This document shows, in pieces, positions 5,455 through 60,285 of a stretch of 64,000 nucleotides of DNA. The notes below the pieces were generated by a model. The model worked only from the letters and a program-made list of their open reading frames with translations. It was not told the DNA's origin and searched no databases. The stretch comes from Candidatus Omnitrophota bacterium (GTDB lineage: Bacteria; Omnitrophota; Omnitrophia; Omnitrophales; Aquincolibacteriaceae): contig JAYTHE010000040.1 of assembly GCA_043732705.1 (NCBI GenBank), positions 3,250-67,249 of the forward strand. Reading direction: 5' to 3'. Positions within the stretch are counted from its first letter, which is position 1, and each line of letters opens with the position of its first letter. The position numbers and the translations under genes are program-made.

Positions 5455-5545
5455 TCAGCTTCTGCGTTGAACGCTGCACTTCCTTGTGCGGCGTATTTCT
5501 TTATACGCCTCCGCGGGCGTTTGCGTTTGCCTTGAATCTGATCGA
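5455..5545. repeat. Copy 1 of a roughly 85-nt intergenic element (copy 2 at 32925-33010)
   Basis: Shares CTTCCTTGTGCGGCGTAT...CGCCTCCGCGGGC...TTGCG...GCCTTG with the second copy. It contains the perfect hairpin GGCGTAT-TTCTTT-ATACGCC. Both copies start 15-25 nt after a +-strand stop codon. Confidence 0.45.
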
Positions 5546-5739
5546 TTTTGAGATGGTTTTCAATTAAGTGGAAGCGCTAGTCTGCATTTATGCCTTGCAT
5601 CGGAGCCTTTTAATGGCTAAACCCCCGTATAAAGAATTGACCTTAAAATAGTTTGCATGTTTGTGTCGTGATCACACCTTGAATTGATCGATTTTGAGCG
5701 ACTATAGTCTAGTGCTGCGCTTCTTAGGGAGCTTGAGAG

Positions 5740-25800: not shown

Positions 25801-28800
25801 ATATTCAACTTGTACAAAAAAAACTCGCCCGCTCCGAAGCGCGAGAAGATTATCGTCCTCAAAAACCAGGTGAAGAAAAACCGGCGCCGGGTATGTTCGG
25901 TCAAACACGCGTATTTGGCCGCTCCGAAATGCGGGAAATTCTCGCAGCATTTCCGACGGAATCACCGACGCACGTCGATTTTGAAAGACTATTTGCCGCC
26001 TACTTGAGCGATGTTTATACAGCTTGGAAAATTGACGGCGATGACATTAAAGATAAAGCCGATCGCGCATATGTGAAGCAGATGGCATTGCAGCATTTGC
26101 GCCAAAGATTTTTAGGCACAGGCACGGTCGATCCGAATGGGCCGAAGGCACCTTTGCATATTCGCCGTAATAAGGGATCGCTGAACGTGGTTTCAGCCGA
26201 AGGTAATGCCGTAGTCACTTCGCAGTTAACCTATAATGAATTGCGCGAAGCGGGCGCGTATAAGCGTTCTGACCTTGATACTGATCCTAGAAGAGATGAG
26301 TATCTTAAGGCTGCTTCAGGAGCTTGGGTTACTTGGAATACATTGGATGGCGGCATCGGCGAAAGTTTAATGCGTGAAGAATGGTTGCTGAATAAGGGGC
26401 TGAGGATGCGCTTGAAGGATATTCTCTCTCAAGCTGAGCAAGCGGATACGAAATATCAAGGTCCATTGGCGGCGCTTAAGCAAGCTGAAGAAAATGGTGA
26501 AACCGAAGAAATTATTAAAGCGCTGCGCGAAATTGAAAAATTAGCCGGTTATGCAGATCCGCTTCAATTGAAAATGGGCGCAAAAGGGACGGATCTTGGC
26601 CGCTCGGAAACGATTCGCGGTAATCAATATTTTGTTGGTGATGCGGAAAGACGTTTGCTCTTAATCGCGGATATTGCGACCAAGAGAAAATTCGGGAAAA
26701 TTGCCTTTCAGCCGTTTGTGAATTATCAATCCGCAGAATCTTATGTAAATCTTATGCAGCAGCCCTATCTATGGGATGTGATTGAAGGTAGTGAACATCC
26801 CCGGACTTATCAGCAAGCTCTCGAAGATGCCGGAGTTGAGATTAAAACACCGCTTGAACAGCAAGATTTGCCTAAATTTGAAATTGAAGACGGTGCGAAG
26901 GCCGGGCTTCCGACTTTGGATTCAAAAGTGCAAGATAAAGGCCAGCCGGGCGGACATGGACAATGGGGCGCTTTTTATATGATGGATTTCACCGAAATTG
27001 CTCCGCCAGATAATGGTTTTCATAATGTGCGCTTTTTTGGTAACGGTGACAACAATCATGGAAATCCCGAGCCGATTGTCGTTGGTTTTGCTATCGTTCA
27101 AAAGAAACCCATTTTGAAAATTACGACACCTGCTACCGCGATTGATACGAAGGGCGGAAAAGAAACCCTGCGTCTCATTCAACTTAAGGAACGGGTGACC
27201 AGAGTTTTGGATCAATGGGAAGAAATTGGCGCTAAAAACGCGGGACAAATTGACTTATTTTACAAAGCAGGGCAGCGCGGCGGTTTTGGCGAACAGGGCC
27301 GGCAGCATTTCAACACCAACTTGTTCGTATTTGATGAAGAGCAAATGCATCCGATTTTAAGAAAAATGCGTGAAATTGTCGGTGAGGATGAATTTTTAGA
27401 TGCGGTTATGCCGCTGTTGTTTGATAAAAGTGATAAAGCCAAAACTATTGACGGTAAAAAATTCGTATCGATGGACTCAGCCATTGGATATGTCATTCAT
27501 AATTTGAATACGTTTTACAGCACCGATCCACGGCTTGAAGAATTGCGCCGGGAATACGGCCCGCAATTGCTTTATTACATGGATTATGATCGTGGTATTT
27601 TTGCGCCCAAAAAGAAGGCCGAAGATCAATACCTGCAAGAGCGTACGGATTATTATGGTCCTTTTGATGAGGAGGCTAAAAATTTCCATGATGCCGAACC
27701 CGGGCTGACACCACCGGGGTTTGATGTTACCGATCCGGTCGAAAAAGACAGCAAAAAAGCCGATTCAAAATTTTGGGGCGAAGTGCAGCATTGGAATGAT
27801 TCGTTTGGAATATCGCGTGTCAGAAAAATGCAATCACTGAAGGTTGAAGGGCGTGTGACGATTCGCAATGCCGAGTATGTCGGGGATGTCGTGATTATCA
27901 ATCGTTTTGGCCGTGAAGACAAAACAAAACCCGCCAAACGCGTTATTTTAAGCAATGGTGTTTATTTCGAACAATTGAAAGCACTCGGTTATTGGGCCGA
28001 AGATCATTTGCTCTTAGAGAATGTGACAATCACGATTGATGAAAGTGGAATTCTGTCGACAAAACCAACCCGCTCCGAAATCCGGAATTTGGATGAGCTA
28101 TTAGCTGAATTGAATAAAGCCGTTCGAGCACCTCTGAATTACAGAGGTGCCGATGCTATGCCGCCAACGACAACGCTAGTCGCACTTGCGCCTAATTTGA
28201 ATGTTGTTATTCAAGTGAGGGATGGAGTTGGCACATCGAGAACAGTGCTTACTTATACTTTAGGAGCAAGAGAATTAGAAACAAGAAATGTATTGCCTGG
28301 CGGACGAAACGCACAGAGCTTCCCTATTGGCGGCGTGGCGTCGTATACCGTTAATTTTCAATTGCCTGCGGCTGACGATGCGAAGGTCGTGGCAGATGCG
28401 CTTAAGCGCGGGTTGCCTCAGTTCGTGACTGGCGATTTTAACGTAGTGCCAGCAGGCAATTCCGGAAGCATCGCCATTACTTTTACACCGAAACGCACAC
28501 AACGTACCGAGTTGATTGAAGCCGCTATTCCTCAAGTTATGGAAGCAATCTATCAGCTGGCGAGGTCAAGAGGGCGGAAAGTCGTAGATTATCAGTTGGT
28601 GGGCTATTCCGGTATCGTATCGAAACAGACATACGGTGCAATGGACCGCTTTCCGGTTACTTTTTCCGCCGAAACCGAACAAATAAGACAAGTGGTTCGC
28701 GCGGCGCTTGATAAAATTTTAGATCATTATGCTGATGGCAGGGTTGAATCCATTGAGGTGAAATTGCAAGATGACGCGCTCACAACAAGCGAGACCCCGT

Positions 28801-30635
28801 CTATCGCCATTGTTTTGAAAACCCGCTCTGAACTGCGGGATCTTAAGTCTGAGCCAATTTTGCTTGGAAAATTCACCCCATTTCTTATCGCTGGCGAAAC
28901 GGAGGACCCTCTCGCAATTACACCTCAGCTGGATGAGTCAAAGCAGGCTGTTGGAAATTTACAGTTTCGCAAAGTCCACTTGGGCAATTTGTCAGCTACA
29001 GCTATCGAAGAAATTAGAGATGCACTGGGACAATCAGGCCTGGACCGCGGTCATCAGGCGTTTTTTGAAAGTAATGCAAGCGGACTTGAAAAAGTTGACG
29101 CCGTAATTCGCAGCGATGGACTTTTAACTGCTTTGATCGGAAAGCAAGCGGGACATGGCGCTGTAACGCATATTGAGTTTGCGGTTCCCCTCGTTTATGT
29201 CGGAGAATATACAGTTCGGCTTGGTTATCCATCACATGGAACTTTAACAATTCCAATTGCGAGTGTTGTCAAAATTGACACAGCGGGTGGCATCATAAAT
29301 ATCGTTGCAATTGAGCCCGTGACGTCTGCCGCACGCTCCGAATTGCGGCTTCAATTGGCAGACAATACTAATCCGCAGGTACGCGCAATTGTTAAACCAT
29401 CCCTCGTTAAAGCTAGAGTAACAACTCCGGATCAATTTAATGTTCCAATTGCTGCAGGGCAAAGTATTGCAGATTCTGTGCAATCGTTTGTCTCAACTAA
29501 TTATGGACATCAAAACTTGAATGATTTGCTTGCTAACACAGGTTCCACGGGTATTAAAGTTACCTTTTTAAATTCCAAGAAAGGAATACTGTTCAGTACG
29601 GAGCTTCATTCAGATCCTTCACCAGCGGGACGAGGTACTCAATATACCGTTCTCAATTCATTTGGCACAAGAAAACCAAACATGATTACGAGCGTTTTAA
29701 TTGAAGTTGTGCGCAGCGAATTGCGCGAGCAAGTTTCGCAAAGACAGTCATCTGTTGAAACGCTCAGCGAAATTTTGCTCGATTTTAAAGCCGGAATTCT
29801 GCCTTATAATGAACTTGTCGATTTATTGAAGGGTTCGCCTGCCCAGGTTTTATTGGATGCCGCAAAGGCTGCCGGAATTGATTTGAAGCTGCCCGGCAGT
29901 ATCGATAACAGCACAGAGGATGTGCTTTCCGCGCTTTTCCCAGTGGACTTAAATGAGGCGATTACAATCAATGTTCCAAAAATTACGGTGCGTGTCAATA
30001 ATGAAAAACCGACTTCGAAGAATATTACGGGAGCGGTGATTCAATCGGCAGAGACGGTGATTGCGATGAAAAAGCAAGCTCCTCAAGCGTTGATTGCACA
30101 TTTGCGCGCTTTAAGTGAAAGAGAATTTTTGGATTTGGCGATTTCGGATAAGCCCGGTGCCGAATCTAAATTTGACTCTGCGTTGAAACAGTTTTTAGGC
30201 TCGGCAGCCGCCGGTGTTCCAAGTCTTGAGGAAAGAAAAATATTGTTTGGGAAAATTCGGCTCCATACAAAAGCAAGCCTGGCTGCTTTTGTTAAAGATC
30301 AAGGCGGGGCAGTTGCAATTATGCTGACAGGCCATAACGACGAAATTTTTACCAGTCTCCAAGGCGGTTTTCGCTTTAAAGTGAAAGGCGCGAAAGGCAA
30401 AGCTCTTTCTGGAAAGGCCTTTTTTGCCATGCCGGTTGTCAGTGTCGGCGCCGCAAAAGTTATGGCGAATATACGCGGTGTTGATGTTTCAATTGCCAAC
30501 TCGGCTATCCCAACGTACTTTAAAGCGCTTGATATGCAGGTTAACCGTGATAGTGACGGAGCGTTTGTATTCAGTGCGATCGCCCAACTTCTGCAGGCCA
30601 TTTTTAACGCTCAATACATCGGAACCATGGCTTAG
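16854..30635 (+). CDS. Giant secreted/membrane multidomain protein (4593 aa). It carries a signal peptide and at least four predicted transmembrane segments. Recognisable regions are a ChaN/Tiki-like N-terminal region, HEAT-like repeats, a beta-propeller-like region, an ACP-like domain and a UDP-sugar-pyrophosphorylase-like domain. A periodic RSE-hydrophobic-R motif recurs throughout.
   Basis: A single uninterrupted ORF in the six-frame track with the N-terminal signal peptide MFQLKNKTVRASVAVFTAVCLSFTQAAISA. Domain calls are from my reading of motifs (see findings). Confidence 0.8.
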   Translation: MFQLKNKTVRASVAVFTAVCLSFTQAAISAPIFSASAPAEVSLPDSLRLDRAVALKVPSAIATIEKLQPGNGKTIFHIQTAHGHYQAQQNINLLLKDLEKNYGVKTVLVEGSSNPLNPEIINFFPKDHEKTMRVVDLLTRKAILKGSEIYLLESGKARGFGIEDEVAYNQNLQDFALVIRAREESKQFLDNLEQSIERLSAVYLSTNLRSFLKQVERKETGNIPFDAYLQQLKIAAKKYAEIDLADPAWQLLWPMLTRVFTIEKLEKKIDAVQFDQQKKDFLTAIKPYTAVEIPREWAKNSPEVAQRVSVYEEVKSLLDLKDLSAKLPDPDTSILFENLVKSLPANFNYARFSSVTSFCGILMIKSEIKADVLTAEISKMEDQITDKLAEKKTAKELVAVLKDYRMLQKLFSLELAPSDYEVIAGSETGGRRPESIQPSVLANRLQTLGASASSLPAKQVRGVKFNHVKELDSLFNQALKFYAGARLRDGKMLARIEERLKETHADKVAVITGGFHSEPFAKYFEQRGYNYALMTPKITTVDAEGRNDYLNAMMMLATAQRLQARRLEARGPRTESATIEGKSVAAMDAVELSLLAKPVSEIVRSEPSLSVEATAVRALWSTEKSSLHSASSSASSTTRATARVEITGARSEMRVSEFPKLGEIPLEVDASQAEKQVFIGKEEWLGDRENLQPIFIQGRGYLAIIVTGPGKWKDNVITSFFISYDAGGKINNVVSLPGGSFHAKSKQIDVKVSVIDEFATATDVQLWVTLKNRKARIFRIKEDKGGEFALYKALKALITSQKRTVSVADGNAGIKKAKSQIVDALKNLESNPTYQQAQRLSHSKTAPKQRSERVITDYQRTVRGLALLPSRSEARKFSDVARFVVGKFVNAVMITGLAVAEIVRITFLSFLMLSFAYVARERAQGPNKTPLQNNEAVRGNVVNLEIIGRHRSEMRPFIHPERISNDLDLLTAVQASREYQSLDKGDEFFVSFYLGHDLVGWIRARREKGEQPWLSSYNRRNDPEHKMIGSMARDAEEKYVSGGNQINELINLMHEESVARKPHIYLSDEHPLVRYSKKRQAIVTKTIARLQSAEAGLLALKAQLDRSVDARQPEPEKFDQERFNSAATERLVQKFIQPAIENLKLGKLSDAWKLIQTAIGLMNDTNGLESGDGLRVIQLLRATRNAISIFADKYGEIVLEADMRAETAEARSEVRTVTLRVLTAAIMGFAFSAIAEQKPVAPPVLRAATDTDPQLLRKIEAVLRQPMPTGNSAGAIQSRKNLETAKEAALKELAGISNPSALYGLLAALLGDKNHPASLKALVAETLKKGLEAPQSSSTVNAVLKILFQIAKDKNNPNRTQAIGVLSQAAEKQRAVIGEFGMREVRLIIDGADKEAAAKRNLLIAEQEKIIRAVNPADKEAWEKRKNALLVLRGFVEDPAFTPGDRSNILKLVVGYLISAPDAVDQQKGKDQNGPWAKVAAAQVLESIGGNEARDALNQFVTDPAQDPKVKADDAFQKVLKKFSGRSEMRTPEITNVRFVLPSKIQGNQVRSAAAYAVEEGLLTGTESWWQEIHTRGNLDLTQRILNDSPKFSYEELSRFARALPPATAYVVVVRKGDFEQAKEFLSIKRPMIFLVEDKADEEGLRNLAIKQSVAHLVSVAYVSDWKKENVASLVREELDRVDGRDLVPRLDRVNIYLSGHLLDSTNEGNARAMLADKGGLLRERVGSLARYYRLYGGQIKSPLKSWADFDVAAGKNSLEIIRSESRATVTEIEFTGEVLVPWRIELKLKDGKSVELKLNQENKAAAKKMFAQSLPIRPLVYTINDASSGTNFGSIQMNLNENPKDLTEKNQISDIRIVKDSVAVSGNNTLVKEVKAWLESFEKEKQAFEGKSLKLSPFQVDDIPLETKFHPVTHSLISARLNFRGNNPVQVGLEADSASLVAMSSAGAEPRETRITFDVTVRKPLTLPQPVGKIHATARVSTNGFTLDEVRKTQTNPAAVDAQGIVSTAAAWLATEDLSESNPRLQPAPARSEVRGDATQPVGGNLFTRPMPRRDALKTAGLLGLISALGRTHVIGATGDVWFGDSNSANLAYTSEQFVNTADGRTFWIFVAKQNIQFQTKPDLQNAAWSPLSGTLADGNVAVIELPKSANGKTGFGRVARATTPSQNQRQAITQLSNSKPLPSEVQTILNSKAYAGKKVTVVQRSEVRGTVFQIVDAFEVSKTEANSESGAYAGPYLLPFLERMPERFKFYKALPQSINFVHPMDETDIGAVNFFASINTASKVDTSSLGAVKARRFKFEDEFVGKEMLFVYDTTAQEIHSIFALDSRNRIVGGIMFKKLPSDILKPERPFPLDPIMTQALDHAGESRVPAKIKYSPQTKDLEIEFNTVAEPEQQVGPSLPDAILKFNSGYEGFTDKPIDSADGAHEFTFDTIAIAAQGLDELIESIAQLEGNEGVSSVYERIKAPQGRISLIFDSKNNLLAIQSGAAGAKARDAIVFEKKSGAISEVVARSSAMAQTLTVLPTVPAPIKGLFGFSGKDHWITFTARSEARSQTGGAVRNEWKISTKGRFSAISPTGKMISLGERSPFERVVEKRVIGDKLIVVTQDPNQKNLRVFNREGKALQLGEFNVIYAFKEYRVVGGDRLIVRMRDAGSLFIYDLADGSQIPLDGHPAIRDSGSILTNEMDVRGNTVYALHDGSWYGYSIRTGKLVRDGHPTKRGTAYIPTGLDIACYGVIAAMIAIGSLLIPLAHPNGVNFAATLAQIVSRSEARLYTNHGGNEPLKQFQEDVQAGKISRGSWLEVRLSRIAAVQKGQFEGFENGQLILKDSRFNPPAMNEHFNLKEIEAIVVRGQYEHYFNIGKSLAIFLIPLFLSFVIAYKYNLHRMGMAVSATIAVVASFILSRFLPASAPVEVVAVAEKIKDIIAKRLGANPEVVTEDAQLVEGLNADSLDLIELINKIESQFKIDISDAEAERLATVGDYIQLVQKKLARSEAREDYRPQKPGEEKPAPGMFGQTRVFGRSEMREILAAFPTESPTHVDFERLFAAYLSDVYTAWKIDGDDIKDKADRAYVKQMALQHLRQRFLGTGTVDPNGPKAPLHIRRNKGSLNVVSAEGNAVVTSQLTYNELREAGAYKRSDLDTDPRRDEYLKAASGAWVTWNTLDGGIGESLMREEWLLNKGLRMRLKDILSQAEQADTKYQGPLAALKQAEENGETEEIIKALREIEKLAGYADPLQLKMGAKGTDLGRSETIRGNQYFVGDAERRLLLIADIATKRKFGKIAFQPFVNYQSAESYVNLMQQPYLWDVIEGSEHPRTYQQALEDAGVEIKTPLEQQDLPKFEIEDGAKAGLPTLDSKVQDKGQPGGHGQWGAFYMMDFTEIAPPDNGFHNVRFFGNGDNNHGNPEPIVVGFAIVQKKPILKITTPATAIDTKGGKETLRLIQLKERVTRVLDQWEEIGAKNAGQIDLFYKAGQRGGFGEQGRQHFNTNLFVFDEEQMHPILRKMREIVGEDEFLDAVMPLLFDKSDKAKTIDGKKFVSMDSAIGYVIHNLNTFYSTDPRLEELRREYGPQLLYYMDYDRGIFAPKKKAEDQYLQERTDYYGPFDEEAKNFHDAEPGLTPPGFDVTDPVEKDSKKADSKFWGEVQHWNDSFGISRVRKMQSLKVEGRVTIRNAEYVGDVVIINRFGREDKTKPAKRVILSNGVYFEQLKALGYWAEDHLLLENVTITIDESGILSTKPTRSEIRNLDELLAELNKAVRAPLNYRGADAMPPTTTLVALAPNLNVVIQVRDGVGTSRTVLTYTLGARELETRNVLPGGRNAQSFPIGGVASYTVNFQLPAADDAKVVADALKRGLPQFVTGDFNVVPAGNSGSIAITFTPKRTQRTELIEAAIPQVMEAIYQLARSRGRKVVDYQLVGYSGIVSKQTYGAMDRFPVTFSAETEQIRQVVRAALDKILDHYADGRVESIEVKLQDDALTTSETPSIAIVLKTRSELRDLKSEPILLGKFTPFLIAGETEDPLAITPQLDESKQAVGNLQFRKVHLGNLSATAIEEIRDALGQSGLDRGHQAFFESNASGLEKVDAVIRSDGLLTALIGKQAGHGAVTHIEFAVPLVYVGEYTVRLGYPSHGTLTIPIASVVKIDTAGGIINIVAIEPVTSAARSELRLQLADNTNPQVRAIVKPSLVKARVTTPDQFNVPIAAGQSIADSVQSFVSTNYGHQNLNDLLANTGSTGIKVTFLNSKKGILFSTELHSDPSPAGRGTQYTVLNSFGTRKPNMITSVLIEVVRSELREQVSQRQSSVETLSEILLDFKAGILPYNELVDLLKGSPAQVLLDAAKAAGIDLKLPGSIDNSTEDVLSALFPVDLNEAITINVPKITVRVNNEKPTSKNITGAVIQSAETVIAMKKQAPQALIAHLRALSEREFLDLAISDKPGAESKFDSALKQFLGSAAAGVPSLEERKILFGKIRLHTKASLAAFVKDQGGAVAIMLTGHNDEIFTSLQGGFRFKVKGAKGKALSGKAFFAMPVVSVGAAKVMANIRGVDVSIANSAIPTYFKALDMQVNRDSDGAFVFSAIAQLLQAIFNAQYIGTMA
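18542..18572. repeat. GC-rich tandem 7-8 nt repeat (GGCTCGGA GGCTCGAG GCCCGAG GCCCGAG) inside the giant gene
   Basis: Read directly; it encodes ARRLEARGPRTE. A related GC-rich block GGAGACCGGCGGCCGGAGGCCCGAGAGC lies at 18131-18158. Confidence 0.7.
25608..25826 (+). other. Acyl-carrier-protein-like domain embedded in the giant protein (phosphopantetheine-attachment DSL motif)
   Basis: AEKIKDIIAKRLGANPEVVTEDAQLVEGLNADSLDLIELINKIESQFKIDISDAEAERLATVGDYIQLV matches the ACP consensus (LGxDSLD...ELV...E..F...I.D......TVGD..DYI). The candidate Ser codon TCC is at 25704-25706. Confidence 0.6.
25921..28067 (+). other. UDP-sugar pyrophosphorylase (UDPGP family)-like domain embedded in the giant protein
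   Basis: ...VTWNTLDGGIGESLMRE... (about 26343) resembles the UDPGP G-rich loop (LNGGLGTSMG). ...GQPGGHGQW... (26946) matches the PGGHGD motif. The C-terminal part resembles the left-handed beta-helix tail of UGPase. Confidence 0.5.
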
Positions 30636-30654
30636 TTTTCTCCGTTTTTAAAGC

Positions 30655-30695
30655 CCGCTGCCTCGAAAGGGTGGCGGGTTTTTTATTTTCCACGG
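30655..30695 (+). terminator. Rho-independent terminator after the giant gene
   Basis: AAAGCCCGCTGCCTCGAAAGGGTGGCGGGTTTTTTATTTT: a GC-rich stem followed by a T-run, 20 nt after the stop codon. Confidence 0.5.
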
Positions 30696-30745
30696 CTGTG
30701 TTAGAATACCGCGCCTTAAAACTGACCTTTTGAAATGGGGATTTT

Positions 30746-31954
30746 GTGTTCAAAACGGCCGAAGAACAACTTCAAATTATTGGCGAAGGCCTTGTTGATT
30801 TAATTTCGCGTGATGAGCTGATTAAGAAGCTCGAATATTCGCGTTCCAAGAATAAGCCTTTGCGCGTCAAGTATGGCGCCGACCCCTCCGCTCCGGATTT
30901 GCATTTAGGGCATACCGTGCCTTTACGTAAATTACGCCAATTTCAAGATTTAGGGCATCAAGTGGTTTTTATTATTGGTGATTTTACGGCTCGCATCGGC
31001 GATCCTTCCCACAAATCGGATACGCGTCCCATGTTGTCCGAAGAACAAATCCAGCAAAACGCGCTGACTTATCAAGAGCAGGTTTTTAAAATTCTCGATA
31101 AGTCCAAAACCGAAGTGCGTTATAACTCAGAATGGCTCGCGAAAATGAACGCGGCCGACTTTCTCACTTTGACTTCCAAATATACGGTGGCGCGGCTTTT
31201 AGAGCGAGATGATTTTAAAAAGCGTTATGAATCAGGCCGGCCGATTGCGCTGGTTGAATTTATGTATCCGATGCTGCAAGGCTGGGATTCCGTTATCGTC
31301 AAGGCGGACATTGAAATCGGCGGAACCGACCAAACTTTTAATCTTCTGGTCGGGCGCGAATTGCAAAGCCGCGAAGGCATGTCACAGCAAATCGTGATTA
31401 CCTTGCCGATTATAGAAGGCACCGACGGCGTTCAAAAAATGTCAAAAAGTTTAGGGAATCATATTGGCGTGATGGATACCCCGCGTGAGATGTTCGGAAA
31501 AATTATGTCGATTCCGGACAACATGATCGAGCGTTATTACCGTTATTTAAGCGCTTTGCCGAAGACCGCTATTGAAGTGGCCGCGGCGGATTTAAAATCT
31601 GGCGTTAATCCGCGCGATATCAAAGCGCGGCTGGGCGAGCGCATGGTGGAGCTTTTTCATTCTTCGCAAGCGGCGGCTGACGCACATCAGGAATTCAACG
31701 AGATTTTTAAGAATAAAGGCCTGCCGGATGAAATTCCCGAATTCAAAATTAAAGAAGATATGGATTTAATTTCACTGCTTGTGCATTGCGGGTTAGCGCC
31801 GTCCAAATCGGAAGCGCGCCGCGCTTTGGATGCCGGAGCCGTAAAAGTCAATCAGGAAAAAGTTTCGGACATGAAATTGGTACTTGATTTAACCGCTCCG
31901 GTGATTCTTCAGAATGGTAAACGAAAATTTGCACGTCTCGTGCGAGCATCTTAA
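30746..31954 (+). CDS. tyrS: Tyrosyl-tRNA synthetase with a C-terminal S4 domain
   Basis: HLGH (...[10 protein letters not shown]...) and KMSKS (...[11 protein letters not shown]...) class I motifs, with an S4-like C-terminus. Confidence 0.9.
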
Positions 31955-31956
31955 GA

Positions 31957-32898
31957 ATGTCATCAATCCTTCAAGTCGATCAGGTTTCTAAAAAATTCGC
32001 GTCACTGCAAGCCGTTAAAGATTTAACGCTTTCACTTTCTTCCGGAGAAATTGTCGGATTTTTAGGGCCCAACGGCGCAGGCAAGACAACGGCGATGCGC
32101 ATGATATGCGGTTTTTTCCCGCCCTCGTCGGGACGAATCCTGATTGACGGAATTGATATCAGCAGGGATCCTAAATCCGCCAAAAAATTAATCGGTTATT
32201 TGCCCGAGACAGTCAGTCTATACGGCGATATGCGTGTAAGTGAATATCTGCATTTTGTCGCGGCGGTTAAAGGCGTGGGCTTTTTGGCGCGCGGCAAGCA
32301 GGTCGATGAGAAAATAGAGCAATGCGGTTTGGGTGAGGTGCGCAAGCGTTTGATTGGGCGCCTGTCCAAGGGCTTTAAACAGCGTGTCGGCTTGGCGCAG
32401 GCACTTTTGGGTGACCCAAAACTTTTGATTTTGGATGAACCAACCTCGGGGCTTGATCCGAAGCAGATTTCTGAAATTCGCGCGCTGATTCATAGTTTGA
32501 AATCGGGTCGTGCGCTTTTATTTTCGACGCATATTCTTCCGGAAGTCACCATGTTGTGTAACCGGGTTGTAATGCTCAACAAAGGCCGCGTTTTAGCAAG
32601 CGGGACAGTTGAGGAATTAGAAGCACATTTGTCCGAAGATTTTCAAATTCAAATCACTATTTTAGGCCGCGCCAAGACTTCGGAAGCGGTTGCAGTGCTT
32701 GAAAAAATTGAAGGCCTCAAGGATATCAATTTTATTATTTCAGAAGGCGAGCAAGTCATGATGACTTGCCGGGCGCCGGTACAGCTCGAATTCCGCAATG
32801 TGATCACGGAAAAACTTTCCAAGCATGGAATCGCGGTGATTGAAATTAAGCGTGAACAATTGACACTTGAAGAAATATTCCTGAGGCTTTTAAAGTGA
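31957..32898 (+). CDS. ABC transporter ATP-binding protein
   Basis: Walker A GPNGAGKTT, ABC signature LSKGFKQRV, Walker B LLILDEPTSGLD. Confidence 0.85.
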   Translation: MSSILQVDQVSKKFASLQAVKDLTLSLSSGEIVGFLGPNGAGKTTAMRMICGFFPPSSGRILIDGIDISRDPKSAKKLIGYLPETVSLYGDMRVSEYLHFVAAVKGVGFLARGKQVDEKIEQCGLGEVRKRLIGRLSKGFKQRVGLAQALLGDPKLLILDEPTSGLDPKQISEIRALIHSLKSGRALLFSTHILPEVTMLCNRVVMLNKGRVLASGTVEELEAHLSEDFQIQITILGRAKTSEAVAVLEKIEGLKDINFIISEGEQVMMTCRAPVQLEFRNVITEKLSKHGIAVIEIKREQLTLEEIFLRLLK

Positions 32899-32924
32899 GC
32901 AATTCGCTGAAAAAAGTCATCTGC

Positions 32925-33010
32925 TGTGTTACAAACTTCGCTTCCTTGTGCGGCGTATTACCGTGTGCGCCTCCGCGGGCACTTGTTTGCGCCTTGCAGC
33001 TGAACATTTT
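32925..33010. repeat. Copy 2 of the roughly 85-nt intergenic element (copy 1 at 5455-5545)
   Basis: CTTCCTTGTGCGGCGTAT...CGCCTCCGCGGGC...TTGCGCCTTG, shared with copy 1. It starts about 27 nt after the ABC ATPase stop codon. Confidence 0.45.
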
Positions 33011-33034
33011 TGAACAAATTGGGCGTAAAAAAAT

Positions 33035-33808
33035 ATGAAAAATATTTTATTTTTAGCGCGCAAAGAATTTTCATCTTATTTTCACACCTGGACCGGTGTG
33101 TTTGTGACGCTTTTCTTTTTTCTCGTCTCCGGTCTTTTTTTTGCATTGCTTATGTTGGGATACGCTAAATTCTCAATGAATCCTGGCATGCAGATGGAGG
33201 AGATGGGTTTAAATCAAACCGACTATATTTTTGGCTCGTTTTATATGAATTTATCGACTTTGCTTATTTTTATCATCCCCATTTTGACGATGCGCGGGTT
33301 CGCCGAAGAGCGGCGCGACCAAACGCTTGAACTATTATTTACTTACCCGTTGTCTGACTTTGAAATTGTCATGGGAAAGTTCCTAGGGCAGGTTTGGATG
33401 TTTGAATTATTGGCCGTACCGCTTTTGGGTTACGGCTTGGTCGCGCAAATGGCCGGCGCAGAGTTTGACTGGCGCGTGGTTTTTCTCGCGTTTCTGGGGT
33501 TTTGGATGCTCGGGCTTTGCTATTTGTCGCTTGGATTTTTTATTTCAAGTTTGACGAAAAGTCCCGTGCTTTCGGCCGTTTCCACATTCGGAGTTTTTCT
33601 TGTTTTTTGGGTTTTGGAATGGGCGGCCAAAGTTTCTGACGGGCGGCTGGCGTTGATTTTTCAGGAAATTTCACCTTTGGATCATTACCGTTACTTCACC
33701 TTGGGGCAGCTCCATTTTCAACATTTGGTTTATTTTGTCATCGCAACACTGTTCTTTTTAACATTGTCGGTGCTCTCAATCTCAACCCGTAATTGGAAAA
33801 GCTCTTAA
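33035..33808 (+). CDS. ABC-2 type transporter permease
   Basis: 257 aa with six hydrophobic helices, directly downstream of the ABC ATPase gene. Confidence 0.7.
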   Translation: MKNILFLARKEFSSYFHTWTGVFVTLFFFLVSGLFFALLMLGYAKFSMNPGMQMEEMGLNQTDYIFGSFYMNLSTLLIFIIPILTMRGFAEERRDQTLELLFTYPLSDFEIVMGKFLGQVWMFELLAVPLLGYGLVAQMAGAEFDWRVVFLAFLGFWMLGLCYLSLGFFISSLTKSPVLSAVSTFGVFLVFWVLEWAAKVSDGRLALIFQEISPLDHYRYFTLGQLHFQHLVYFVIATLFFLTLSVLSISTRNWKSS

Positions 33809-33864
33809 GGTGAACTGTGAATAGTGAATTGTGGATAGTAAATTCCAAAACAAAGGCGAGCATA

Positions 33865-33916
33865 CCTGTCCACCTCCGGGAGGTGGCCAGATGTCCACCT
33901 CCCGGAGGTGGACAGG
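33865..33916. promoter_or_regulatory. Perfect 22-bp inverted repeat (7-nt spacer) that contains a Shine-Dalgarno sequence and an ATG
   Basis: CCTGTCCACCTCCGGGAGGTGG-CCAGATG-TCCACCTCCCGGAGGTGGACAGG read directly. The left arm contains GGGAGGTGG five nt before the ATG at 33891. Confidence 0.7.
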
Positions 33917-35279
33917 TGGGAAAGAGTTTCAAATGAAACAGCTTTGGTATCGTTTTCAATTTCTATTGATTACATTGCTTCTGACCGCGAGCGTGGTGCT
34001 GGGTTATTTAGTGGTTCGAAAAATTGACTGGCACTATGACGTGACGCGTGAGAAGGTCCATTCGCTTCCCGATGAAACTGCGCGCGTGCTGCAAGAGCTT
34101 GCCGCAAAACCGGTTGAGGTTGTTGCTTTTTATCCGAAAGATGATCCGTCACGCGAAGCTTTGACGATTTTTCTTAAACAATGCCAGGCCGCTCACGCGC
34201 GCTTTCAATTTAATTTGTATGACCCCATTCGCCGCCCCAAACTGGCGGAAGAATATCGCGTCGAACAAAATTATACAACCGTCATCCGGTCCGCAGGGCA
34301 TGAGGAGCGTATTTATAATTTTACGGAAGAGACATTCACTAACGCGCTTTTCCGCCTCGCGCATCCGCGGAAATTGGATGTTTGCTTTGTAACCGGGCAT
34401 CAAGAGTTAAATATTAAAAGTAATGAACGGAACGGGGCCATGACTTTTGCCCGGAATCTTCAAAATGGCGAAGTAAGTATTCATTCAATTGTGCTTGCGC
34501 GCGACGGAGTTCCGGATTCCTGTAATGTTACGGTCATGGCCGGTCCGCATACCGAACCCGCGCCGGACGAATTTGAAAAACTCCGCAAAGCTTTCGAAAA
34601 AGGGCGCAGTCTTATTTTTTTAATTGATCCGATGGATTTAGGCGTGGGAAGAAAGTTTATCGACTTTTTTAAGGCGTTTGGAGTTGTAATGGGTGAAAAT
34701 GTCTTGGTTGATAAAGCGAGCCGGGTTGTGGGCGGAGATTTTTTAATGCCCGCAGTCACAACTTATGCAAAGCATGAATCGATGAAGCGCATGACTGACC
34801 CGACTTTTTTCCCCGTCACGCGAACAGTCCAACCTTCGACTGATATTCCGCAGGGCTTGGAAGTTTCACCGCTTGCCATCACCAATGACAGCAGTTGGGC
34901 GGAATCTGACCTGGCGCTGCTTGAAGACGGAAAAGCAGCGTTTGATGCGAAACATGATATTGCCGGACCTTTGCCCCTTGCCGTAGCCGTTGAAAAAAAG
35001 CCGAACGGCGGACGCATGGTAATTGTCGGTGACAGCGATTTTTTAACAAATGGATATTTGGCCATTTCTCAAAATCTCGACTTTGCGGTTGAGATTTTAA
35101 AATGGGCGGGCCGCGACAGCCGGTTTATTCATGTCCGGCCGCGCCGCACACCTTTTAAGCCGCTTTTGCTCAAAGAATATCAACGGCAAGGGCTGTTGGT
35201 ACTGGTATTGGGCATGTATCCGCTCGCGCTTTTTATTCCGATTAGTATTTATCTTTTTATTCGCTCGAGAACCGCATGA
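33891..35279 (+). CDS. GldG-like ABC-transporter-associated protein (N-terminal membrane anchor, large extracytoplasmic domain, C-terminal transmembrane segment)
   Basis: Architecture and conserved blocks (...VAFYPKDDP..., ...VTGHQE..., ...IVGDSDFLTN...) match the GldG / ABC-type uncharacterized transport system family. The start is ambiguous (ATG 33891 inside the inverted-repeat spacer, or ATG 33933). Confidence 0.6.
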   Translation: MSTSRRWTGGKEFQMKQLWYRFQFLLITLLLTASVVLGYLVVRKIDWHYDVTREKVHSLPDETARVLQELAAKPVEVVAFYPKDDPSREALTIFLKQCQAAHARFQFNLYDPIRRPKLAEEYRVEQNYTTVIRSAGHEERIYNFTEETFTNALFRLAHPRKLDVCFVTGHQELNIKSNERNGAMTFARNLQNGEVSIHSIVLARDGVPDSCNVTVMAGPHTEPAPDEFEKLRKAFEKGRSLIFLIDPMDLGVGRKFIDFFKAFGVVMGENVLVDKASRVVGGDFLMPAVTTYAKHESMKRMTDPTFFPVTRTVQPSTDIPQGLEVSPLAITNDSSWAESDLALLEDGKAAFDAKHDIAGPLPLAVAVEKKPNGGRMVIVGDSDFLTNGYLAISQNLDFAVEILKWAGRDSRFIHVRPRRTPFKPLLLKEYQRQGLLVLVLGMYPLALFIPISIYLFIRSRTA

Positions 35280-36289
35280 AGTTCAGGACAACGTTGTTTT
35301 TTGTCGTTTTATTTTTCGGCGTGTTGGCGCTGTATCTTTCACAAACAAAACAAGAATCCGTGCGCGTTGAACAAGTTAAAAAAACAAGCGATGATTTTAA
35401 AGTTCAAGTCGAAGAAAAATTGCCCGAGCTTAAAAAAGATCAGAAAGTGAACTTTATTCAAGTTCAGGAAATGAATAAAGAGGAAACATTTTGGCTTGAG
35501 AAGCAGGACACCGTCTGGCAAATTGTTTATCCCGTCAGAACACCGGCGGACCAGGCTATGGCACAGGGTATGGCGGGTATGGTCAAGCTGGCTCTCAATC
35601 AAAAGCTTTTGCGCCCGGAGGGCGCGTGGGCGGATTATGGGCTGGATCACCCGGATATTAAAATCGGCGTGGGAACTACAGACGATCCGGAAAGGCATTT
35701 TCTCTATCTTGGTAAGGCGGCTCCGATGGGCGCCGGAGTTTTTGCGCGCTGGGATGACAAAAACGCTTACTTTATTTTGCCCCAAGCGCTGAAATCAGCT
35801 TTTCAAAAAAGCTTGTATGAGATGCGCGAGAAACGTGTTTTTATGACGCCGATGCCCAAAATGGACCGCGTTTATATTGAAATCGGTGATCAGACTTTTG
35901 ATTGGACGCTGAGAAACGGGTCCTGGTATTGGATGGAGCCGCTTGATTTAATCGGAAAAACCATGGCGGAAGATCAAATGATGGCCGTGATCCAGATTCT
36001 TTCCAAGCTTTACGTGAAAGAATTTATCGATGATTCAACGAGTGATATTTATGCTGCGGGTATCAGTATGATTTCAGACCGAATTCAGATTCGCTCAGGC
36101 ACAAATACCGAAACTGTTTATTTCGGAAAAGAAGCGTCGCTTAAAACAGCTTATTACGCTCACCGTGAAAATGAAAAAACATTATTTTTAATCGATCAAA
36201 CCAAAGTGATTGAGATTTTAGAATTATTGGATGCTCTTGATAAAGTGAATCATCCTGCCGCGGTTGCGATGCAAAAATTGCAGGCTTGA
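35276..36289 (+). CDS. Hypothetical membrane-anchored protein (DUF4340-like partner of GldG)
   Basis: N-terminal transmembrane helix; position downstream of the GldG-like gene with a 4-bp overlap. I recognise no catalytic motif. Confidence 0.45.
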   Translation: MKFRTTLFFVVLFFGVLALYLSQTKQESVRVEQVKKTSDDFKVQVEEKLPELKKDQKVNFIQVQEMNKEETFWLEKQDTVWQIVYPVRTPADQAMAQGMAGMVKLALNQKLLRPEGAWADYGLDHPDIKIGVGTTDDPERHFLYLGKAAPMGAGVFARWDDKNAYFILPQALKSAFQKSLYEMREKRVFMTPMPKMDRVYIEIGDQTFDWTLRNGSWYWMEPLDLIGKTMAEDQMMAVIQILSKLYVKEFIDDSTSDIYAAGISMISDRIQIRSGTNTETVYFGKEASLKTAYYAHRENEKTLFLIDQTKVIEILELLDALDKVNHPAAVAMQKLQA

Positions 36290-36306
36290 AAACCTTGGGG
36301 TCCTGA

Positions 36307-36987
36307 TTGATGTCGATTCAAAAAGAACTCTTTGACATTCGAAATCGCATGAGTCGCGCTGCTTCCGCGCGAAGCGTCGAATTGATTGCGGTGACAAAAA
36401 CATTGAGCCCTCATATCATTCGCAGCGCGTATGCCTTAGGCTTGCGTGACTTTGGTGAGAATAAGGTTCAAGAGTTTTTAGAAAAATACGACGTTCTTCC
36501 GGGAGACATTCGCTGGCATATGATCGGCAGGCTTCAAACGAACAAAGTGAAAGATGTTTTAGGGAAAATAGCCTTGATTCATTCGCTGGATCGTCTTGAA
36601 CTGTATGACAAGCTGGACGCGGAAGCCCGCAAGCGCAAAACAGGGAATGTGGAATGTCTTTTGCAGGTGAATATCAGCGGGGAAGCTTCCAAGGCGGGCT
36701 TAGCCGCGTGTGAAATAGACGGGTTTTTAACTCAATTGAAGCCCGATTCGCCGGTTCAAATCAAAGGCTTGATGACCATCGCACCTTTGACGGAGAATAA
36801 GAATGAGATTCGAAATGTTTTTCGCGTCGCAAAGACGTTATTTGAAAAGCTAAAAAAAGAATACGCGCAGTTTGATTGGAAGTATCTTTCGATGGGAATG
36901 TCAGGTGATTTTGAAATTGCGATCGAAGAAGGCGCGACGATGGTCAGAATCGGAACGGCTTTGTTTGGCGAGCGTCAAAAGCAATAA
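36307..36987 (+). CDS. yggS: YggS-family pyridoxal phosphate homeostasis protein
   Basis: ...IELIAVTKT... with the PLP lysine, and ...GMSGDFEIAIEEGATMVRIGTALFG... at the C-terminus. Confidence 0.8.
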   Translation: MMSIQKELFDIRNRMSRAASARSVELIAVTKTLSPHIIRSAYALGLRDFGENKVQEFLEKYDVLPGDIRWHMIGRLQTNKVKDVLGKIALIHSLDRLELYDKLDAEARKRKTGNVECLLQVNISGEASKAGLAACEIDGFLTQLKPDSPVQIKGLMTIAPLTENKNEIRNVFRVAKTLFEKLKKEYAQFDWKYLSMGMSGDFEIAIEEGATMVRIGTALFGERQKQ

Positions 36988-36999
36988 CCGGAGTTTTAT

Positions 37000-37803
37000 A
37001 TGCGAATTACAAAAAAAATCGGATTGATCGGCTGCGGCAATATGGGGTCGGCGATTTTAGCGGGCGCCTTTCAGAATAAAATTTGCAATCCTTCACAGGT
37101 GTGGGTCGCCGATAAAATGGCCGGTAAGGTTCGTGCTTTCAGCAAAAAGAATAAATGCCGCGCGGCGCGAGATGCGGCCGAAGCAGTTCAAAAGACGGAT
37201 ATTATTTTACTCGCCGTCAAGCCGCAAGATTTAGCCGAAACCGCGGCCTCAATCAAGCCGTTTCTTCATTCACGCAAAACGGTGATTTCCATTCTTGCCG
37301 GAGTGAAACTTGCCGGCCTTAAAAAGCATTTAGGCGCGGCAGTTGTGGTGCGGGCAATGCCGAATCTGGGCGCTCAGGTCGGTGCTTCGGTGACGGCGCT
37401 TTGTTCTCAAAAAAAAGAATCGTTAAAATCGGCTCAAATCCTTTTTTCCGCCTGCGGCAGTGTGGTGGTTTTGAATGAAAAATATTTTGATGTGGTGACT
37501 GCGGTCAGCGGCAGCGGTCCGGCGTATTTCTTTTTGATGATGGAATTATTGGCTGATTTTGCGCGTAAAAACGGCATGGATGAGAAATCCGCGCGGCAGC
37601 TTGCAGTTCAAACTGCGTTGGGAGCGGGACGTTTAGCGGCCCTTAGTTCCGAGCCGCCGGCGGTATTAAGAGCGCGCGTCACATCGAAGAAGGGTACAAC
37701 GCATGCGGCATTATCCGTGTTAAAATACCGCAAGTTTCCAAAAATATTTTTTGCCGCGTTGCAAGCCGCAGTCAAGCGTAGCCAGCAATTAAGCAAACGG
37801 TAA
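37000..37803 (+). CDS. proC: Pyrroline-5-carboxylate reductase
   Basis: N-terminal Rossmann motif IGLIGCGNMGSAI and a P5CR body. It sits in the yggS-proC-yggT arrangement. Confidence 0.8.
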   Translation: MRITKKIGLIGCGNMGSAILAGAFQNKICNPSQVWVADKMAGKVRAFSKKNKCRAARDAAEAVQKTDIILLAVKPQDLAETAASIKPFLHSRKTVISILAGVKLAGLKKHLGAAVVVRAMPNLGAQVGASVTALCSQKKESLKSAQILFSACGSVVVLNEKYFDVVTAVSGSGPAYFFLMMELLADFARKNGMDEKSARQLAVQTALGAGRLAALSSEPPAVLRARVTSKKGTTHAALSVLKYRKFPKIFFAALQAAVKRSQQLSKR

Positions 37804-37893
37804 CAAATTGCAATCTTCAATACTGTGGAATATTGCAATCTTCGATGAGCTTAGATTGCGAAGTCGTAATATACGATTGGGAGACAAATAGAC

Positions 37894-38190
37894 ATGTTTA
37901 TTTTTGGTGAAATTTTGAATGGAATCGCTTTTATTATTAATGCGATTGTCACGGTATTGATGTGGATCATCATTGTGCATGCTGTTTTAACCTGGCTTTT
38001 AAGCCCTTTTCATCCCTATGTGCAAATGCTCAACCAAGCTGCGGAACCGGTGTTGAAGCCTTTTCGCCGCTTGCCGCTGACCATTGGCAATATTGACTTT
38101 ACTCCGCTGGTTGCCGTCATTGTTTTGAACGTTGTCAAAAATATTTTACTTCGTCTGATCATGATCGGTTCTCAGTATTTCGGAACTTAA
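37894..38190 (+). CDS. yggT: YggT-family membrane protein
   Basis: 98 aa with two transmembrane helices; conserved synteny with yggS and proC. Confidence 0.65.
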   Translation: MFIFGEILNGIAFIINAIVTVLMWIIIVHAVLTWLLSPFHPYVQMLNQAAEPVLKPFRRLPLTIGNIDFTPLVAVIVLNVVKNILLRLIMIGSQYFGT

Positions 38191-38207
38191 GATTTTTATT
38201 CCTAATC

Positions 38208-39056
38208 ATGCCCGCAAAACCCAATCAAAAAACTAAAAATCCAACGCTTGCCCACATTGACGCTTGTGTCCGTGTCATCCGTAAGAAGACGGATTTTGTT
38301 CCTGAGTTTTGCTGTGTACTTGGAACCGGATTGGGCCATTTAGCAAAACAGGTCAAAGTGGACACGGCTTTTGAATACCGTAAGCTGCCGCACTTCCCCG
38401 TAACAACCGTTGAGTCGCATCGCGGACAGTTGATCTTAGGCGAATTGGAAGGACGGCGCATGGCGATGTTGGAAGGCCGCTTTCATCTTTATGAAGGTTA
38501 TTCCGCCGCGGAAGTCGTTTTTCCGGCGCGTGTTTGCCGTTTTCTTGGCGCAAAAAGCATGATTGTGACGAATGCGGCGGGCGGTTTAAATCCGGCTTAT
38601 AAAAGCGGCGATATCATTGCCATTCATGACCACATTAATTTTTTAGGAGTGAATCCTTTGACGGGCCCGAATGATGAGCGCATCGGGCCGCGCTTTCCCG
38701 ATATGTCCGAACCTTACACGAAAGATTTTTTAAAAACCGCACAAGCTGCGGCGAAAAGTTTAAAATTAACCCTGCATGAGGGGATTTATCTCGCTATTGC
38801 GGGACCAAACCTTGAAACTCGCGCAGAATATCGTATGATAAGAAACTTTGGAGCCGATTTGGTTGGCATGTCAACTGTTCCGGAAGTGATTGCCGCCGTG
38901 CATGCGGGAATGAAAGTTTTGGGGTTGAGCGTGATTACGGATGTTTGTGACCCGGATCATTTGAAAGCGGTTGATATTCGTGAAATTATTCGTGTTGCCA
39001 ATGCGTCGGGCCCGAAATTAGATCAATTGATTCGTAGATTTTTAAAGCTGGTTTGA
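38208..39056 (+). CDS. Purine nucleoside phosphorylase / MTA phosphorylase family (PNP_UDP_1)
   Basis: ...VLGTGLGHLA..., ...GRFHLYEGYS..., ...MIVTNAAGGLNP... and ...VGMSTVPEVIAA... blocks are typical of PunA/MTAP-type phosphorylases. Confidence 0.7.
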   Translation: MPAKPNQKTKNPTLAHIDACVRVIRKKTDFVPEFCCVLGTGLGHLAKQVKVDTAFEYRKLPHFPVTTVESHRGQLILGELEGRRMAMLEGRFHLYEGYSAAEVVFPARVCRFLGAKSMIVTNAAGGLNPAYKSGDIIAIHDHINFLGVNPLTGPNDERIGPRFPDMSEPYTKDFLKTAQAAAKSLKLTLHEGIYLAIAGPNLETRAEYRMIRNFGADLVGMSTVPEVIAAVHAGMKVLGLSVITDVCDPDHLKAVDIREIIRVANASGPKLDQLIRRFLKLV

Positions 39057-57640: not shown

Positions 57641-57756
57641 TTCATTCATGCCCTGGTGGGTAGAGGCTAGAAGCGGTTAAACGCTTTTGCGTTTCCTGTT
57701 TTAAAAACTCCCGGGGTTCGGCAAAGCTGATCCCCGGGAGTTGAGATGGTAAAAAA

Positions 57757-59928: not shown

Positions 59929-60285
59929 TTATCTTATTTCGTAAGGCCTTTGTTCTTTTAAAACGACATAGATTCGAGCTGTTAGTTTTCGAGCGACGGC
60001 AGTAATAGCGATTTGAGCGCCGCTCTGTTGATTACGTTTAGCTTTGATGCGGTGATAGAAATTTGCCAGTTCTTTATCTTTACGAATGGTAATCCAGGTG
60101 GCTTCGATGAGAAGCCCGCGGAGAACGCGATCACCTAGATGGCTAATGCGCCCCCGTCGGACGTTATCGCCGGTGGAACTTTCTCTTGGAACAAGACCCA
60201 CAGAAAGCGCCAAGTTCACGAACATTGCGAAGGTTTGCCGGATCCCCGATACGTGCGAGCAGAGCTGGTGCGATAACCGGCCCAA
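59929..60285 (-). pseudogene. IS110-family transposase, C-terminal fragment only (remnant)
   Basis: ...VGLVPRESSTGDNVRRGRISHLGDRVLRGLL...FYHRIKAKRNQQSGAQIAITAVARKLTARIYVVLK... matches the IS110 C-terminal Transposase_20 domain (VPRExSSG..R.GRISK.GN..LR..L). No N-terminal DEDD catalytic domain or terminal inverted repeats are present. Confidence 0.6.

Follow-up and report, generated by a model that had tools for sequence, protein, structure and literature searches.

A lineage-specific palindromic hairpin in the permease-gldG spacer of a Candidatus Omnitrophota ABC operon, and the reading frame that crosses it

Does a very stable hairpin that buries a Shine-Dalgarno (SD) sequence and carries an ATG in its loop control the translation of the gene behind it? 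The question is raised by a near-perfect 54-bp palindrome in a stretch of 64,000 nucleotides (64 kb; hereafter the window) of contig JAYTHE010000040.1 from a Candidatus Omnitrophota bacterium. The palindrome lies in a tightly packed operon, in which all genes are read from the same strand, and occupies part of the 124-nt spacer between the gene of an ABC-2 permease and the gene of a GldG-like auxiliary protein (gldG). An RBS-sequestering switch, i.e. a structure that hides the ribosome-binding site (RBS) of gldG until it is melted, was what the initial annotation of this DNA had proposed. It would have been a neat regulatory device; the evidence points elsewhere. The palindrome is an extragenic palindromic hairpin in an operon spacer, which is a known kind of element; it is lineage-specific and, as far as searched, single-copy. 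The reading that we favour, at somewhat better than even confidence, is that it is a young, lineage-specific addition to a junction at which the two genes once overlapped, that it is not the RBS of gldG, and that it forms a passive, constitutive helix crossed by a 39-codon reading frame.

The left arm of the palindrome is CCTGTCCACCTCCGGGAGGTGG, and the right arm is its exact reverse complement over 22 of 22 positions, in agreement with the initial annotation; the coordinates of this and other features are given in Table 1. The loop consists of eight nucleotides, CCAGATGT, and not of seven as first counted, T33894 having been taken into the right arm. The symmetry reaches outward to A33864/T33917. 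If one mismatch is allowed it also runs inward almost to the centre, where a repeat finder reports arms of 26 nt that are 96% complementary and only 2 nt apart. Both arms, earlier described as nearly palindromic, are themselves palindromic: unit 1 (33867-33889) is a perfect 8+1+8 palindrome contained in the left-arm feature, and unit 2 (33892-33914) a perfect 11+1+11 palindrome contained in the right-arm feature. Tandem Repeats Finder (TRF) reads the same sequence as two tandem 25-bp units, each a palindrome of the pattern TGTCCACCTCC-S-GGAGGTGG(A/C)CA. The SD-like GGGAGGTGG is found in the left arm and ATG 33891-33893 in the loop, at the positions at which they had been reported.

The RNA hairpin had been called very stable, and the predicted folds bear this out. 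Heating weakens the computed fold from -52.3 kcal/mol at 37 C to -22 at 80 C and to -9.4 at 100 C, i.e. in silico the helix is still folded at 100 C. In the alternative fold, two small separate hairpins reach -14 (unit 1) and -17 kcal/mol (unit 2), while the hairpin formed by DNA is predicted at -31 kcal/mol. Within a context of 161 nt the z-score is -6.0, and none of 200 shuffled sequences folds as well. Among 25,576 sliding 60-nt folds from both strands of the window the palindrome is the most stable, with -53.9 kcal/mol compared with a mean of -10.7 (standard deviation 4.4). A perfect inverted repeat of at least 22 bp with a short loop is expected about 7e-8 times per 64 kb, so chance does not explain the palindrome. 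The next-best local fold in the 64 kb, 21 kcal/mol behind, has -32.9 kcal/mol and is found at 57691-57750 (+; AACTCCCGGGGTTCGGC / GCTGATCCCCGGGAGTT). It sits in a 194-nt spacer that leads from a YqaJ-like recombinase gene to a YgjP-like gene, just upstream of the YgjP-like start.

Whether the hairpin can control gldG depends on which start codon the gene uses. ATG 33891 is in frame with gldG, and GGGAGGTGG is placed at good spacing from it. The sole database protein identical to the window product (P0001, 462 aa) is called from this codon and begins MSTSRRWTGGKEFQ-MKQLWY, but it is also the only homologue with the 14-aa N-terminal extension. All 12 close homologues (P0002-P0013, 68-87% identity) have 449-451 aa and begin with MKQLWY or MRQIWY, corresponding to ATG 33933, and more distant homologues begin with M(K/R)QF(F/L)LKFQ. 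The closest named homologues come from Candidatus Omnitrophota metagenome-assembled genomes (MAGs). Further, in three relatives at 78% identity (L005, L006 and L068) the ATG of gldG overlaps the permease stop as ATGA, and in the outgroups L086 and L087 (50-51%) the overlap reads TGATG. With start and stop overlapping in this way, those relatives have no room for an extended N-terminus.

ATG 33933 is preceded by an SD-like sequence, GGGAAAGAG, that resembles in style the SD-like motifs of other genes in the window. Judged from the homologous N-termini, we take ATG 33933 with this SD to be the functional start of gldG, and the 462-aa model P0001, starting from ATG 33891, is probably a mis-call. 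It is likely that the strong GGAGG that the palindrome happens to contain pulled the automatic gene caller upstream. Both GGGAGGTGG and ATG 33891 are by-products of the palindrome sequence, GGAGGTGG being simply the complement of CCACCTCC. A palindrome with GGAGG beside an ATG can draw a gene caller to a false start, here a 462-aa model in place of the conserved 448-aa protein. The idea that the hairpin occludes the RBS of gldG fails at this point: the conserved start at 33933, found in 12 of 12 close homologues, is outside the helix. Occlusion of the real RBS was also rejected as a candidate role, the gldG SD beginning one base 3' of the stem. The fallback offered by the initial annotation fares better, in that the true start at 33933 is supported by the homologues and the evidence agrees with a hairpin that serves as an element of structure or stability within the operon.

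To place the palindrome in time we compared the permease-gldG junctions of relatives at 50-87% protein identity. Conservation of the hairpin upstream of gldG orthologues, which had been put forward as a check, is not seen: the palindrome is absent from all 12 junctions. In the outgroups L086 and L087 the genes overlap with a spacer of -1, and in L005, L006 and L068 with a spacer of -4. The spacer measures 6 nt in L083 (70% identity), 40 nt in L084 (68%) and 49 nt in L070 (77%), the latter two with unrelated content, and 105 nt in L004 (72%), where it is AT-rich and again unrelated. A hairpin-forming repeat of ~110 nt fills the spacers of L001 (87%, 142 nt) and L003 (72%, 157 nt), and L067 (85%) has a spacer of at least 134 nt with a different doublet of repetitive extragenic palindromic (REP) units. 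Only the last ~20 nt before the ATG are common to the spacers of L067 and the window. Homology between the window palindrome and the L067 doublet was considered and rejected (local alignment 21/31, not significant, p 0.03-0.06).

Since overlap is found both in the outgroups and in several close relatives, and the contents of the spacers are unrelated, the ancestral junction can be taken as a direct overlap and the spacers as independent, derived insertions. By this comparison the palindrome appears to have arisen after the lineage of the window split from the relatives at 85-87% identity. The ABC operon is a hot spot for small insertions in this clade, and at the junction studied here we have a once-overlapping junction, in an uncultured phylum, that attracts unrelated hairpin-forming inserts.

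The variation is not confined to one junction. Over all junctions of the ABC operon (31957-36289 in the window; L001-L006, L068, L083-L087) spacers vary from -4 to 397 nt between close relatives. In the outgroups every junction of the operon is overlapping.

The ~110-nt repeat, which holds the position of the palindrome in L001 (2855-3004) and in L003, is also present in the window, at 5445-5551 and in the copy listed in Table 1; the copies in L003 are at 1918-2070 and 2840-3004. It is always in sense orientation and adjoins stop and start codons. When the five copies are folded together (RNAalifold) one long hairpin is obtained, with 38 pairs of which 14 show compensatory changes. Four of the five copies are open reading frames (ORFs) of 47-54 codons with 4-nt overlaps with both neighbouring genes, and their lengths (144, 153, 165 and 150 nt) are all multiples of three. 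The listed copy in the window bridges the stop of the ABC ATPase gene (GTGA overlap) and the start of the permease gene (ATGA overlap). The peptide has the motif LKK[VF]xCxV..SCGV..TPP..L..AL.L..FE. We rejected it as an established protein family, as it has no Pfam hit and the one database match is the L003 copy itself. The repeat has no Rfam match.

A REP-like unit, ATTCCCGCG(A/C)AGGCGGGAAT, is multicopy in the operon versions of the relatives, often as inverted doublets, and reads VIPAQAGIQ in one frame. It is found in L001 (~1739-1793, ~4500, minus-strand) and in L005 (~871-928, ~2003, ~2132, minus-strand). The doublet of L067 (27-93) is GTCATTCCCGCGCAGGCGGGAATCCAG...CTGGATCCCCGCCTGCGCGGGGATGAC, and REP-like units of this type are absent from the 64-kb window. 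Upstream of gldG the contig of L067 stops within 134 nt and that of L069 within 42 nt, as if the assembly broke at a repeat.

A bridging reading frame recurs among the short inserts. In the window a 39-codon ORF crosses the spacer: it opens with GTG 33817, 9 nt beyond the end of the permease gene, whose stop codon is overlapped by an SD-like TAAGGTGA; it then passes through the palindrome, and its own stop, TGA 33934-36, overlaps the gldG start as ATGA. Such an ORF is carried by 3.5% of shuffled window spacers. Overlapping stop and start codons of the ATGA type allow translational coupling by termination and reinitiation. Among the relatives, bridging ORFs between permease and gldG have 49 codons in L001, 54 in L003, 18 in L070 and 15 in L084, with 4-nt overlaps at both ends in all four. 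In L004 the corresponding ORF has 34 codons and ends 7 nt before the start, and L067 keeps this frame open across the REP doublet as far as the contig end, its 5' end lying beyond the contig. At other junctions, the window, L003 and L004 each have a bridging ORF between ATPase and permease, and one spacer between tyrS and ATPase has one as well.

When the ~110-nt repeat family is counted once, seven of eight independent short operon spacers carry a bridging ORF compared with 1.6 expected (Poisson-binomial P ~5e-6). In all seven spacers where the ORF runs from the upstream stop to the downstream start, the distance from the left start to the right start is 2 mod 3; for the permease-gldG spacer of L004, where the ORF ends 7 nt early, it is 1 mod 3. 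As controls we used the other same-strand spacers of the window, and none of these 12 has a bridging ORF. The recurrence is suggestive of a rule of tolerance, by which an insert would be kept if it contains a translated frame that hands ribosomes on to the start behind it. Nearly all the short inserts retain a bridging frame, which suggests how operons might tolerate insertions without losing translational coupling. If true, this would connect selfish palindromic repeats with the control of operon stoichiometry, and we regard the recurrent bridging ORFs as a more interesting lead than the palindrome.

Under the reading that we favour, ribosomes reading the 39-codon frame would unwind the helix and then reinitiate at gldG, and this relay would restore the translational coupling that was lost when the spacer was inserted. 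An unread helix would crowd the gldG SD, and structures upstream of an SD can alter initiation more than 100-fold (PMC3936740). GGGAGGTGG and ATG 33891 would be locked permanently in the -52 kcal/mol helix and so be silent; even if the long helix did not form they would still be held in the -14 kcal/mol hairpin of unit 1. The helix might further serve as an obstacle to 3' exonucleases or as a substrate of RNase III, which may favour the upstream ATPase and permease part of the transcript. That intercistronic hairpins shape the decay of operon mRNA is known, for instance from malEFG (PMC5927463). On this view the relay frame would carry the palindrome as a passenger, or as a gate at most. A bolder version is that the formerly ATGA-linked junctions of this clade are repeatedly colonised by hairpin inserts (the ~110-nt repeat, REP doublets and the palindrome) that are tolerated only with an open relay frame, beginning at or beside the upstream stop and finishing on the downstream start, and that the palindrome gates GldG synthesis on ribosomes arriving from the permease gene; we consider this version speculative and on the whole unlikely.

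Several observations weigh against the favoured reading. All three sense frames are open across the palindrome, with stops confined to the heptamer region that follows the permease gene, so the bridging ORF of the window alone is weak evidence (p ~0.035). It begins with a GTG preceded by a modest SD. Long, REP-rich spacers have no bridging ORF: this holds for the ATPase-permease spacers of L001 (397 nt) and L005 (346 nt) and for the 234-nt G-D spacer of L001. The criteria for a bridging ORF were set post hoc, and the shuffle null ignores any coding ancestry that the inserts may have. As the palindrome is known from one sequence, covariation and selection cannot be assessed, and its proposed role rests on sequence and predicted folds. 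Finally, further copies and a gene for a REP-associated tyrosine transposase (RAYT) may be present in the source genome beyond the 64 kb.

This last point leads to the possibility that the palindrome is a REPIN-type mobile element (a REP doublet forming a hairpin), moved by a RAYT, multicopy elsewhere in the source genome and landed here by chance, with no dedicated function. We consider this fairly unlikely. The palindrome is extragenic and consists of two inverted imperfect-palindrome units that join into one long hairpin (-52 kcal/mol compared with -14 and -17 for the units alone), which agrees with the definition of a REPIN (PMC3337134). True multicopy REP-like units (ATTCCCGCGnAGGCGGGAAT) are present in the same operon of relatives, with a doublet at this very junction in L067, and the ~110-nt repeat sits at the same site in L001 and L003. 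However, the units are 8 nt apart and the total length is 54 bp, compared with 89 bp for the Pseudomonas REPIN (PMC3337134), and the 64 kb contain neither a second copy nor a comparably stable hairpin. The 17-mer core, given as CCACCTCCSGGAGGTGG and expected 0.07 times, occurs in the window only at the two arms, even with up to three mismatches, and a blastn-short search with the whole spacer found no partial copy in the relatives or at any other place in the window. In 596 Gb of species-representative genomes a 19-mer had 60 hits, all of them isolated matches to one unit, mostly in high-GC genomes, none in Omnitrophota and none as a doublet. JGI metagenomes, scanned with a 20-mer, gave five single hits and no doublet, and the viral contigs of IMG/VR, scanned with a 17-mer, gave seven single hits in a context read as coding, again with no doublet. 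No translated copy was found among 5.8 billion protein clusters when the palindrome was queried as six-frame peptides. For the source genome the copy count covers the 64 kb, its MAG not being among the reference genomes scanned. Within the window, the reference genomes, the JGI metagenomes and the viral contigs there is thus no second copy, and the multicopy REP-like repeat that the initial annotation had named as the finding that would overturn its proposal has not appeared there. Nor is there a hit to a Y1/RAYT transposase among the 48 ORFs of the window, which is the part of the source genome covered.

It is quite unlikely, in our view, that the palindrome is instead an element selected for mRNA decay or processing, comparable to the malE-malF REP, the puf stem-loop or the Correia elements, which would lower GldG and the DUF4340 protein relative to the transporter core and for which translation through the palindrome would be irrelevant. 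Either it would protect the mRNA of tyrS, ATPase and permease upstream of it, or RNase III would cut it. In structure it is what a decay barrier calls for, namely a very stable stem that lacks a U-tract and sits in a packed same-strand operon; relatives carry independent hairpin-forming inserts of their own at this junction, and there is precedent in ABC-transporter operons (PMC5927463). RNase III binds Correia elements and either cleaves or protects them (PMC2649163). Against this, the palindrome is not conserved even at 85-87% protein identity whereas the protective structures of E. coli are conserved between genera (PMC5927463), several relatives and the outgroups manage with a direct overlap, and the decay role is a prediction from sequence and fold. 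The switch of the initial annotation, in which sequestration of the SD and ATG 33891 would tune the permease:GldG stoichiometry as a thermosensor or a melt-to-open device, is very improbable. Apart from the well-spaced GGGAGGTGG, the shared frame and the start of P0001, little speaks for it: the 14-aa extension is missing in all homologues, in several relatives the ATGA overlap leaves no room for it, and relatives do not share the structure. RNA thermometers as known have marginal stability, while this helix is predicted to stay folded from 37 C (-52.3 kcal/mol) up to 100 C (-9.4), and the SD is paired at -14 kcal/mol even within unit 1 by itself. Coupling through a ribosome terminating on the permease gene does not open it either, as that stop lies 57 nt upstream of the stem. 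We see an even slimmer chance that the palindrome acts as DNA, either as two tandem 23-bp operators (TGTCCACCTCC-N-GGAGGTGGACA, 25 bp apart) for a dimeric regulator or as a recombination or cruciform site. The two near-identical palindromic units at a 25-bp period and the predicted DNA hairpin of -31 kcal/mol would suit such a role, but no promoter-like site is listed in the spacer (the nearest, 33735-33764, is inside the permease gene), the motif is found nowhere else in the window, relatives do not conserve it, and no regulator gene is adjacent. Least credible of all is an assembly or amplification artefact of the metagenome-assembled contig. The protein cluster of the gene does have a single member, on a single contig; yet the palindrome makes up only 54 bp of a 67-kb contig with intact genes on both sides, its flanks are not palindromic, and relatives also have real inserts at this junction.

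Two further roles were tried and rejected. The palindrome does not qualify as an intrinsic terminator: behind the stem comes GTGGGAAAGAG and no U-tract, and it is unlisted in the terminator scan. It also does not belong to a known RNA family, as no Rfam 15 match reaches the gathering score anywhere in the window and only sub-threshold, generic-hairpin hits to microRNA precursors are obtained.

How the palindrome arose can partly be read from its arms. The reverse complementarity of the two arms is exact down to the asymmetric central base, where G stands against C. To account for the palindrome, an inverted copy needs one mismatch and a direct tandem duplication three later changes. As the inverted copy fits this well, an origin by template switching in one step is as plausible as transposition, and template switching can make a perfect hairpin in a single event (PMC10710096). 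The source of the palindrome may thus have been template switching that left an inverted duplication, or the insertion of a REPIN-like element.

The surroundings of the palindrome are listed in Table 1. On the same strand the gene order is tyrS, ABC ATPase, ABC-2 permease, GldG-like protein (PF09822), DUF4340 protein, yggS and proC, and the palindrome is extragenic, with the permease gene ending before it at 33808 and gldG beginning behind it at its conserved start, 33933. The 90% cluster of the permease contains three further members. Immediately behind the permease gene, five tandem heptamers supply GTG starts and TGA stops (GTGA) in all three frames; as a dispersed motif the heptamer has no other occurrence in the window. 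In sequence the heptamers are similar to (A/G)TGAAAC at the start of gldG, and slippage at the old junction may have produced them.

Table 1. Features at the permease-gldG junction, with coordinates in the window
Feature	Coordinates	Strand	Evidence
Copy of the ~110-nt hairpin-forming repeat, reads as a 47-codon ORF	32895..33038	+	sequence comparison
ABC-2 family permease gene, 257 aa, stop TAA 33806-33808	33035..33808	+	Pfam PF12679/PF12698/PF01061; C-terminus NWKSS-stop as in relatives
Five tandem heptamers GTGAAYW, immediately 3' of permease stop	33810..33844	+	TRF period 7/14
Putative 39-codon bridging ORF (VNSELWIVNSKTKASIPVHLREVARCPPPGGGQVGKSFK-stop), GTG start	33817..33936	+	sequence, shuffle null 0.035; translation proposed
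Near-perfect palindrome	33864..33917	.	sequence, folding, repeat finder
Left arm with unit 1 (33867-33889) and SD-like GGGAGGTGG (33878-33886)	33865..33886	+	sequence
8-nt loop CCAGATGT with ATG 33891-33893	33887..33894	+	sequence
Right arm with unit 2 (33892-33914)	33895..33916	+	sequence
Purine-rich SD-like GGGAAAGAG, 6 nt 5' of ATG 33933, abutting 3' base of stem	33918..33926	+	sequence
GldG-like ABC-transporter auxiliary gene, 448 aa, start MKQLWYRFQF	33933..35279	+	Pfam PF09822/PF23357; homologue N-termini; junction alignment

In the region scanned for terminators (30500-38500) the clearest one is a canonical terminator at 30650-30682, ahead of tyrS. It is preceded by a single ORF of 4,593 aa (16854-30635, +). 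The remainder of the window holds housekeeping genes. Its only transposase-like hit is a 118-aa ORF at 59929-60285 (-), which contains just the C-terminal Transposase_20 domain (IS116/IS110/IS902 family) and probably represents an insertion sequence that has been truncated. REP-like palindromes are known targets of members of this family; between the fragment in the window and the hairpin no link was found.

It remains to compare the palindrome with systems that are already known. ROSE and fourU are RNA thermometers that sequester an SD. The palindrome is like them in that an SD-like GGAGG is paired to CCUCC with a start codon nearby, and unlike them in that it is far beyond the meltable range (-52 kcal/mol), the sequestered start is not that of the gene, and the structure is not conserved. 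With regard to REP sequences, the palindrome is without the 5' GTAG-type tetranucleotide that defines the family. Its likeness to REP/REPIN elements (PMC3337134, PMC3116915) is that two inverted, short, imperfect palindromes build one long near-perfect hairpin, in an extragenic, lineage-specific sequence and in an operon where relatives carry multicopy REP-like units. It differs in being single-copy in the collections searched, in the lack of a RAYT in the window, and in having its units almost adjacent, within 54 bp and not the 89 bp of the Pseudomonas GI REPIN.

In common with the protective intercistronic hairpins (malE-malF REP, puf; PMC5927463), the palindrome is a stable stem-loop without a U-tract between cistrons of an ABC operon, and as such it could block 3'-5' exonucleases and set the stoichiometry of the subunits. 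However, those structures are conserved in related species (75-91% in enterobacteria, PMC5927463) while the palindrome is absent from all relatives, and it lies between the permease and an auxiliary subunit and not, as the malE-malF REP, after the gene of a binding protein. The Correia/NEMIS elements of Neisseria are miniature inverted-repeat transposable elements whose inverted repeats fold in mRNA and bind RNase III (PMC2649163); the palindrome resembles them as an inserted, co-transcribed palindrome with a duplex length suitable for RNase III. They are 100-150 bp long and multicopy, with defined terminal repeats and target duplications, none of which is seen at the palindrome.

Quasipalindrome mutations made by template switching (PMC10710096, PMC7202029) are similar in that the palindrome is lineage-specific and a perfectly complementary inverted repeat. 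That mechanism, though, is documented mainly in E. coli reporters and eukaryotic genomes. The likeness to ATGA coupling is found in the frame around the palindrome: the ancestral junction would have been ATGA or TGATG, and the 39-codon ORF again ends in ATGA on the gldG start. Unlike a plain ATGA junction, the coupling proposed here would need an intermediate mini-ORF that is read through a very stable hairpin.

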